From assembly GCF_002854065.1 (NCBI RefSeq), contig NZ_CP024147.1: a stretch of 64,000 nt of DNA. One strand, given 5' to 3'. Source of the DNA: Escherichia coli (GTDB taxonomy: Bacteria; Pseudomonadota; Gammaproteobacteria; Enterobacterales; Enterobacteriaceae). The position numbers and the translations under genes were made by a program. Positions 43,014 through 43,193 of this stretch are shown piece by piece; positions within the stretch are counted from its first letter, which is position 1, and each line of letters starts with the position of its first letter. The notes under the pieces were generated by a model. The model saw nothing but the letters and a program-made list of their open reading frames with translations. It was not told the DNA's origin and made no database searches.

Positions 43014-43193
43014 TTAGTCGGATTTACGAATCATGAGACTTATAATGGAAGGAATGAGACTAAGCGGCCAGGTTAAACCTGTAATTATTGCAGCAAACAA
43101 CCGATATGTTACTTTTTCTTCCGAGAAGATAAATATTAAAGTCGATGTCACAACCAGACCTATCAGGTAAGCTAACAGTAATTTATTGATCAC
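43014..43193 (-). CDS. Hypothetical 59-aa two-helix small membrane protein (below the ORF-track length cut-off)
   Basis: GTG start at 43193 preceded by strong Shine-Dalgarno AAAGGGGAGGTAAAA; translation VINKLLLAYLIGLVVTSTLIFIFSEEKVTYRLFAAIITGLTWPLSLIPSIISLMIRKSD; 66 nt downstream of the GH15-like gene on the same strand. Confidence 0.4.
   Translation of the reverse strand: MINKLLLAYLIGLVVTSTLIFIFSEEKVTYRLFAAIITGLTWPLSLIPSIISLMIRKSD

Follow-up and report, generated by a model that had tools for sequence, protein, structure and literature searches.

The 59-codon ORF that follows a glycoside hydrolase-like (GH15) gene near one end of the ETT2 island of Escherichia coli poses the question of what a small membrane peptide of a toxin family is doing beside the gene of an exported enzyme. 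We analysed it in a window of 64,000 nucleotides (contig NZ_CP024147.1 of assembly GCF_002854065.1), this term being used here for the whole stretch of DNA, and in the related loci of other genomes. About one-quarter of the complete E. coli genomes, those in which the glyU-proximal end of ETT2 is kept, carry this third GhoT/OrtT paralogue without a GhoS partner, and since the paralogue sits in a mobile GH15 cassette that is shared with Yersinia, it raises the wider question whether the peptides of the GhoT family are toxins at all or serve exported enzymes as membrane partners.

The reading frame, its signals and its neighbours

The positions of the ORF and of the features around it are collected in Table 1. 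The ORF is read from the minus strand and the ORF listing gives its product as MINKLLLAYLIGLVVTSTLIFIFSEEKVTYRLFAAIITGLTWPLSLIPSIISLMIRKSD. An initial annotation, made from the sequence alone, had described a GTG start preceded by a near-consensus ribosome-binding site, and both are present, the order being GGGGAGG (43204..43198), UAAAA and GUG, with a spacing of 5 nt; in E. albertii and Yersinia, too, the starts of the orthologues have Shine–Dalgarno-like purine runs in front of them. Its figure of 66 nt for the distance to the GH15-like gene on the same strand is exact when counted from the GH15 stop codon (TAG, 43262..43260) to the GTG of the peptide gene. The description of the ORF as unannotated, however, is valid only with respect to the 60-aa ORF track, as a RefSeq CDS and the gene designation ECs3735 already exist.

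Table 1. Features of the peptide gene and its surroundings in the window
Feature	Position	Strand	Description and basis
eivF, InvF-like AraC regulator, downstream neighbour	41919..42668	−	NF011868 InvF E = 1.2e-53; RefSeq eivF
A+T-rich spacer, peptide gene to eivF	42669..43013	−	345 nt
GhoT/OrtT-family peptide CDS, ECs3735 orthologue	43014..43193	−	59 aa; GTG start, TAA stop; ORF listing
Shine–Dalgarno sequence GGGGAGG	43198..43204	−	read directly in the sequence
Intergenic hairpin	43223..43246	−	7-bp G+C-rich stem, 10-nt loop, no U-run
GH15-like glycoside hydrolase, pkgA / ECs3736-37 orthologue	43260..44870	−	intact; PF00723; RefSeq annotation
IS2	44912..46242	+	blastn against the uninterrupted O157:H7 locus L001; end sequence; insC/insD ORFs
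tRNA-Gly (glyU), island insertion landmark	46443..46513	−	Rfam RF00005, 71.6 bits

The gene itself is already known, both from RefSeq and from the ETT2 gene tables. RefSeq names the CDS 'GhoT/OrtT family toxin' (e.g. WP_001301699.1), and the CDS is present at every E. coli locus with the ORF that was fetched and in all 60 of 60 sampled matches. A 2014 review of ETT2 lists ECs3735 of strain Sakai as a 180 bp gene, homologous to ydcX and encoding an inner membrane protein, that lies between eivF (ECs3734) and pkgA (ECs3736) (PMC3977695); ydcX is the only homologue given in Table 1 of that review, which names no counterpart of ECs3735 in SPI-1 (PMC3977695). We found no functional study of the peptide in the literature on ECs3735/Z4199, on pkgA, or on GhoT in ETT2, in Yersinia, in E. 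albertii or in connection with GH15. An inventory of the toxin–antitoxin systems of AIEC strains, which may or may not carry the ETT2 ORF, has GhoST and OrtT as its only type V or orphan entries (PMC7232551).

A longer form of 78 aa is called in many assemblies (e.g. E. coli 042), but was rejected, RefSeq having the 59-aa form everywhere. The ATG from which the longer form would start (43251..43249) comes into frame only where a lineage has lost 1 nt from the spacer, and it has no Shine–Dalgarno sequence; in this window the ATG at 43251 is out of frame, and the codon that is in frame there is TGA. We note that some E. coli lineages differ in the segment of the spacer at 43205..43215 by a 1-nt indel and a C/T substitution, which put the upstream ATG in frame.

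The product of the GH15-like gene is 536 aa long from the ATG at 44870, begins with an N-terminal Sec-type signal peptide, and matches PF00723 with 21.8 bits, slightly below the cut-off of 22. The gene is intact in the window, as it is in most of the other lineages that we compared, and is frameshifted in O157:H7 (locus L001, 2436..4041), where it appears as ECs3736 and ECs3737. In the spacer between this gene and the peptide gene the initial annotation had reported a hairpin with a 7-bp stem and no U-run, and this description is correct although the coordinates given for it (43222..43245) are off by 1–2 nt. The core of the stem, GCGGUCC/GGACCGC, is made up of 43246..43240 and 43229..43223, and the bases that come after the hairpin are UCAAAGAGAAAUCG, with no U-run among them. 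The 66-nt spacer as a whole folds at −19.5 kcal/mol (z = −3.4), with one of 200 shuffled sequences folding equally well. The lack of a U-run is in keeping with read-through at the hairpin, and co-transcription of the peptide gene with GH15 is putative. A candidate sigma-70 promoter for the peptide gene alone, within the 3′ end of GH15 (43304..43275), is a 9/12 match, no better than is expected of shuffled sequence, and was discarded. On the other side of the peptide gene, the minus strand of the spacer that leads to eivF showed nothing resembling a terminator; this spacer has diverged by 5.5–6 % among E. coli lineages, and in the comparison with E. albertii only about 60 nt at its end are conserved. 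The island context is A+T-rich, with a GC content of 0.32–0.39.

RefSeq places a tRNA-Gly gene upstream of the GH15 gene, and an Rfam search of 41500..47000 at a permissive threshold gave nothing besides this tRNA. The IS2 element, which is 1331 bp long and has a 5-bp target duplication, lies inside the 233-nt spacer between glyU and GH15, and thus between the cassette and the tRNA-Gly gene, with its IRL end directed toward GH15; 41 nt separate it from the start codon of that gene. In this window the native sequence upstream of the GH15–peptide pair is displaced by the element, which probably alters transcription of the pair in this strain.

Relationship to GhoT and OrtT

The Pfam family PF10753 (Toxin_GhoT_OrtT) matches residues 4–46 of the peptide with 45.1 bits (cut-off 22.1, E = 1.2e-11) and is carried by all of the database orthologues of the peptide; the earlier suggestion that the ORF encodes a toxin-like peptide fits this membership. 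In BLASTP comparisons the peptide is 39 % identical to GhoT of K-12 over 46 aa (E = 2e-12) and 25 % identical to OrtT of K-12 (E = 2e-6), and on this evidence the ORF is a third, diverged paralogue beside the chromosomal GhoT and OrtT. Neither NCBIfam nor PADLOC gave a meaningful match for the peptide or the GH15 protein, and a search of the PDB sequences gave no relative of known structure.

A Kyte–Doolittle hydropathy plot has two peaks, one on each side of the loop SEEKVTYR, and an AlphaFold2 model (pLDDT 81), for which an alignment of 17 sequences was the input, has helices at residues 4–23, 28–40 and 46–58 with a kink at TWP. The two hydrophobic helices separated by a charged loop that had been proposed are therefore borne out by hydropathy and model alike. 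With invariance judged on a 17-sequence alignment that includes GhoT and OrtT, the peptide keeps all of the family-invariant columns (M1, Y9, S24, R31, G39, T41, W42 and S45), and it also keeps the nearly invariant G12, P43 and L46. The motif of the family in TM2 is G-x-TWP-x-S, which runs from G39 to S45 in the peptide.

The substitution F38R abolishes the toxicity of GhoT and reduces that of OrtT. The counterpart of Phe38 of GhoT and OrtT in the peptide is Ile36, and phenylalanine is not a family-defining residue at this position. Codon 36 (43086..43088) encodes isoleucine, valine or alanine in E. coli, isoleucine in E. albertii, and valine or serine in Yersinia, and it is the sole recurrently polymorphic residue among the six E. 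coli loci compared, with Ala35Thr and Leu19Phe occurring in one lineage. Since position 36 is uncharged throughout, and aliphatic in Escherichia, it neither proves toxicity nor excludes it.

Of the two characterized relatives, OrtT (YdcX of K-12; PMC4344625) is like the peptide in its Pfam family, its size (57 as against 59 aa) and its two-TM hairpin, and it shares with the peptide S24, R31, G39, T41, W42 and S45 together with the nearly invariant P43. OrtT has no adjacent antitoxin gene, and no candidate for one was detected beside the peptide gene; GCU sites are present in the mRNAs of both. The peptide departs from OrtT in being only 25 % identical to it, in having a polymorphic isoleucine in place of Phe38 and in its charged C-terminal tail, IRKSD; and whereas ortT is found at the patD–ydcY locus, the peptide gene is part of a horizontally acquired island, where it follows GH15. 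GhoT, of the type V system GhoST, is the closest characterized relative in sequence, has the same architecture, and is likewise the product of the downstream gene of a same-strand pair. The upstream gene of the peptide, however, encodes an exported GH15-like protein of 536 aa and not the 98-aa RNase GhoS, the peptide mRNA is not free of GCU, there is no GhoS homologue nearby, and the second proline of TM2 is shifted in the peptide (WPLSLIP as compared with WPMSLPV). The O157:H7 gene ECs3735 (WP_001301699.1) has the same neighbours as the gene in the window, with GH15 upstream and eivF downstream; the window differs from O157:H7 in having an intact GH15 gene, in its upstream IS2, and in the removal by IS1 of ETT2 beyond eivG.

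We think it probable that the ORF is a functional gene for a 59-aa, two-TM inner-membrane peptide of the GhoT/OrtT family and that it acts as an OrtT-like orphan toxin or stress brake, a toxic role that we infer from its relatives. By analogy with GhoT and OrtT (PMC4344625), the peptide, when abundant, would insert in the inner membrane, dissipate membrane integrity and ATP, and slow growth, and it would do so alone, as a membrane toxin or stress brake and not as one half of a type V pair. The anatomy of the locus suggests that the GTG start, the stable hairpin on the GH15 side and the A+T-rich acquired island may keep output low, with the hairpin perhaps serving in partial attenuation or processing of the transcripts that read through from GH15. 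The low identity to the characterized toxins (25–39 %) and the polymorphic isoleucine at the place of Phe38 count against a toxic role. Small hydrophobic peptides are, moreover, often toxic only if they are over-produced, and 'toxin' may misdescribe the native role of this one; the conserved adjacency to the gene of a periplasmic enzyme suggests a different, cooperative role.

The pairing with the GH15-like gene

An orthologue of the same length, with the frame kept, occupies the same position in E. albertii: this protein (P0082, at locus L010) is 59 aa long and 60 % identical to the peptide, and the gene order is GH15, peptide, eivF-like gene and secretin gene. More distant relatives, P0084 and P0244 of Y. 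enterocolitica and P0083 of a Yersinia-type sequence, are 44–45 % identical to the ETT2 peptide, and the gene for each of the three comes directly after a GH15 gene of about 540 codons. None of the three has T3SS genes near it, and for the pair in Y. enterocolitica there are none within 10 kb. On a Y. enterocolitica contig of 238 kb the pair is flanked by IS66, IS256-like, IS6 and IS110 elements, and a RES-domain gene and an AbiEii gene are also near it. Since the pair occurs in IS-rich regions of Y. enterocolitica without T3SS genes, GH15 and the peptide gene together have the character of a mobile two-gene cassette, and judging from its distribution this cassette is one that moves independently of ETT2 and forms the glyU edge of the island in Escherichia. 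A role for the peptide as a T3SS component was rejected, as the cassette exists without T3SS genes. The pairing of a peptide of this family with the gene of a periplasmic GH15-like hydrolase, with which it travels, appears to be new.

An intact pair is present at five loci: the window, the E. albertii locus L010, and the loci L011, L012 and L022 of Y. enterocolitica or Yersinia-type sequences. In all five the spacer between GH15 and the peptide gene is 66–102 nt long and contains a stable hairpin; the sequences of these hairpins are unrelated to one another and their position is the same, between the GH15 stop codon and the ribosome-binding site of the peptide gene. A further Y. enterocolitica assembly (GCA_046763825.1, locus L015, 6687..6857) has a GhoT-like ORF whose inter-helix loop is interrupted by an in-frame TAG and in which TWI replaces TWP, and this copy looks from its sequence like a pseudogene standing beside an intact GH15 gene. 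The hairpin upstream of it is followed by a T-run and resembles a true terminator.

The initial annotation had suggested a small membrane partner of the hydrolase. These arrangements speak for the idea that the peptide is a dedicated membrane partner of the periplasmic GH15-like enzyme, as its anchor, regulator or release factor, and is not primarily a toxin, a reading that we consider unlikely though clearly the strongest competitor of an orphan toxin. A GhoT-like ORF does follow GH15 in E. coli, in E. albertii and at three Yersinia-type loci, so that the part of the idea that concerns adjacency holds well: the same order, strand and hairpin-bearing spacer recur at the five intact loci, in two genera and two unrelated contexts, and even the pseudogenized copy of L015 is at the same position. 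All of the orthologous GH15 proteins have Sec-type signal peptides, which places the enzyme beside the inner membrane, and the GH15-linked peptides have a signature of their own, TWPLSL(I/F)P, where GhoT and OrtT have TWPMS(L/F)PV. The part of the idea that concerns partnership fares less well, since each of the two genes has been lost or broken independently of the other.

One such loss is that caused by a common ETT2 deletion that starts at window position 43247, which is the 5′ edge of the hairpin and 13 nt past the GH15 stop codon, and that joins the end of GH15 to an eivJ remnant (compare L009, 2541..2560). It removes the peptide gene, eivF, eivG, eivE, eivA, eivC and eivI and spares GH15, and it is present in about 1940 complete E. 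coli genomes. In all, 3264 E. coli genomes keep the 3′ end of GH15 and 1325 keep the peptide, so that roughly 1940 of the 3264 genomes with the GH15 end lack its supposed partner. Conversely, O157:H7 has an intact peptide gene with a frameshifted GH15, and the Y. enterocolitica lineage of L015 has an intact GH15 with a stop codon in the peptide gene. Adjacency across taxa and contexts was thus found and co-retention was not, and the independent decay of the two genes makes an obligate partnership unlikely. We note also that physical linkage alone can explain the co-transfer of adjacent genes.

Distant relatives of the GH15 gene speak against a dedicated partnership as well, for no GhoT-like ORF was found beside those of Commensalibacter, termite-gut Elusimicrobia and Bdellovibrionales, or beside an IS66-flanked copy and a T3SS-linked copy. 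When genome contigs were scanned with a GH15 alignment, only two distant relatives were found, in Elusimicrobia and Bdellovibrionales, and these did not widen the range of the cassette. At locus L019 (3219..6647) a GH15 homologue with 59 % identity adjoins a different SPI-1-like T3SS with prgH, needle genes, prgK and orgA; the locus also has partition genes of the parA/sopB type and a SopD-like effector, has no GhoT-like ORF, and shows that this GH15 clade has become associated with secretion systems of the SPI-1 type a second time, independently.

A more specific version, to which we give slightly less credence again and which should be taken as speculation, is that the GH15-linked peptides, of the ETT2 and the Yersinia type, form a separate subfamily of PF10753 whose native role would be to work with the exported GH15-like hydrolase, for instance by tethering, gating or releasing it at the inner membrane, in which case the label 'toxin' for the whole family would reflect an artefact of over-expressing small membrane partner proteins. 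The shared signature WPLSL(I/F)P suggests that the GH15-linked peptides may be monophyletic.

Toxin class, conservation and the remainder of the island

If the peptide is, as we favour, an orphan toxin or stress brake, there should be no dedicated antitoxin, and the contrary proposal, that it is the toxin of a complete toxin–antitoxin module, either of type V with GhoS supplied in trans or of a type-I-like kind with an antisense RNA, strikes us as very improbable. The homology to GhoT is in favour of a type V module, but a tblastn search with K-12 GhoS found no significant homologue in the window (the best match, E = 0.024, is in an unrelated thiolase gene), and none was found at the related loci L010–L012, L015 and L016. 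Moreover, GhoS does not neutralize OrtT, which is 63 % identical to GhoT (PMC4344625), and the peptide is only 39 % identical to it. The ghoT mRNA is free of GCU (MqsR) sites, a property that underlies the MqsR-dependent activation of GhoT (PMC4344625); there are three GCU sites in the ORF of the peptide gene, none in ghoT and two in ortT. With GhoS missing and GCU sites present, two features of type V GhoST fail, and the peptide is therefore better described as an OrtT-like orphan than as part of a type V module. As for antisense control, an RNA complementary to the 3′ part of the ORF could be delimited by a weak promoter-like site on the plus strand (42725..42754) together with a site that resembles a terminator (43069..43081). 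The number of promoter-like hits is at chance level, however (7, with 7.3 expected), other E. coli lineages have synonymous changes that disrupt the candidate stem at 43069..43081, and no antisense RNA was matched by Rfam here.

Of 5426 complete E. coli genomes, 1325 have the ORF. When 60 matches were sampled evenly from these 1325 genomes, 59 were seen to span exactly 180 nt and the lowest-ranked match spans 182 nt; the initial annotation had pointed to frame-disrupting variation elsewhere as the observation that would count against a gene, and 59 of the 60 sampled genomes are without a net indel. The copy in the window is identical to that of O157:H7 at 180 of 180 nt, and at least 1000 contigs encode exactly this protein. 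Among 1.84 billion representative proteins searched with HMMER there were only 13 matches, of which those from outside E. coli were the informative ones. A plasmid-borne copy was considered and rejected, as the single plasmid match by tblastn is to a record that, at 4.9 Mb, has the size of a chromosome. A comparison of six E. coli loci, taken from different lineages, gave 7–8 nucleotide differences between lineages, with only one or two amino acid changes and no indels. The dN/dS ratios of the peptide gene (Nei–Gojobori) are 0.04–0.10 within E. coli, 0.14 in the comparison with E. albertii, for which dS is about 2 and synonymous sites are saturated, and 0.19 between two Yersinia copies; the ratios of the flanking genes are in the same range (GH15 0.08–0.17, eivF 0.05–0.12). 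By this pattern of substitution the ORF is a real protein-coding gene under purifying selection.

That the ORF instead exists by chance, or is a relic in decay without a present-day function, is the least credible reading of all, for although ETT2 is widely degraded and in this window has mostly been removed by IS1, with IS2 beside the cassette, and although about 76 % of complete E. coli genomes lack the peptide and one Yersinia copy is a pseudogene, the synonymous bias is strong, the frame has been kept over saturated divergence and mostly without indels, the Pfam match is significant, and the Shine–Dalgarno sequence and start codon are conserved.

Two identical copies of IS1 lie in tandem in this window (39421..40188 and 40212..40979; span 39421..40979), separated by a 23-nt spacer; their identity to E. 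coli IS1A/B is only about 92 %. The junction of IS1 with eivG seen here was found in no complete E. coli genome of the collection. The IS1 pair truncates eivG/sctC after codon 315 and abuts yqeG/yqeF, and hence nearly all of ETT2, from yqeH to eivG, has been deleted here.
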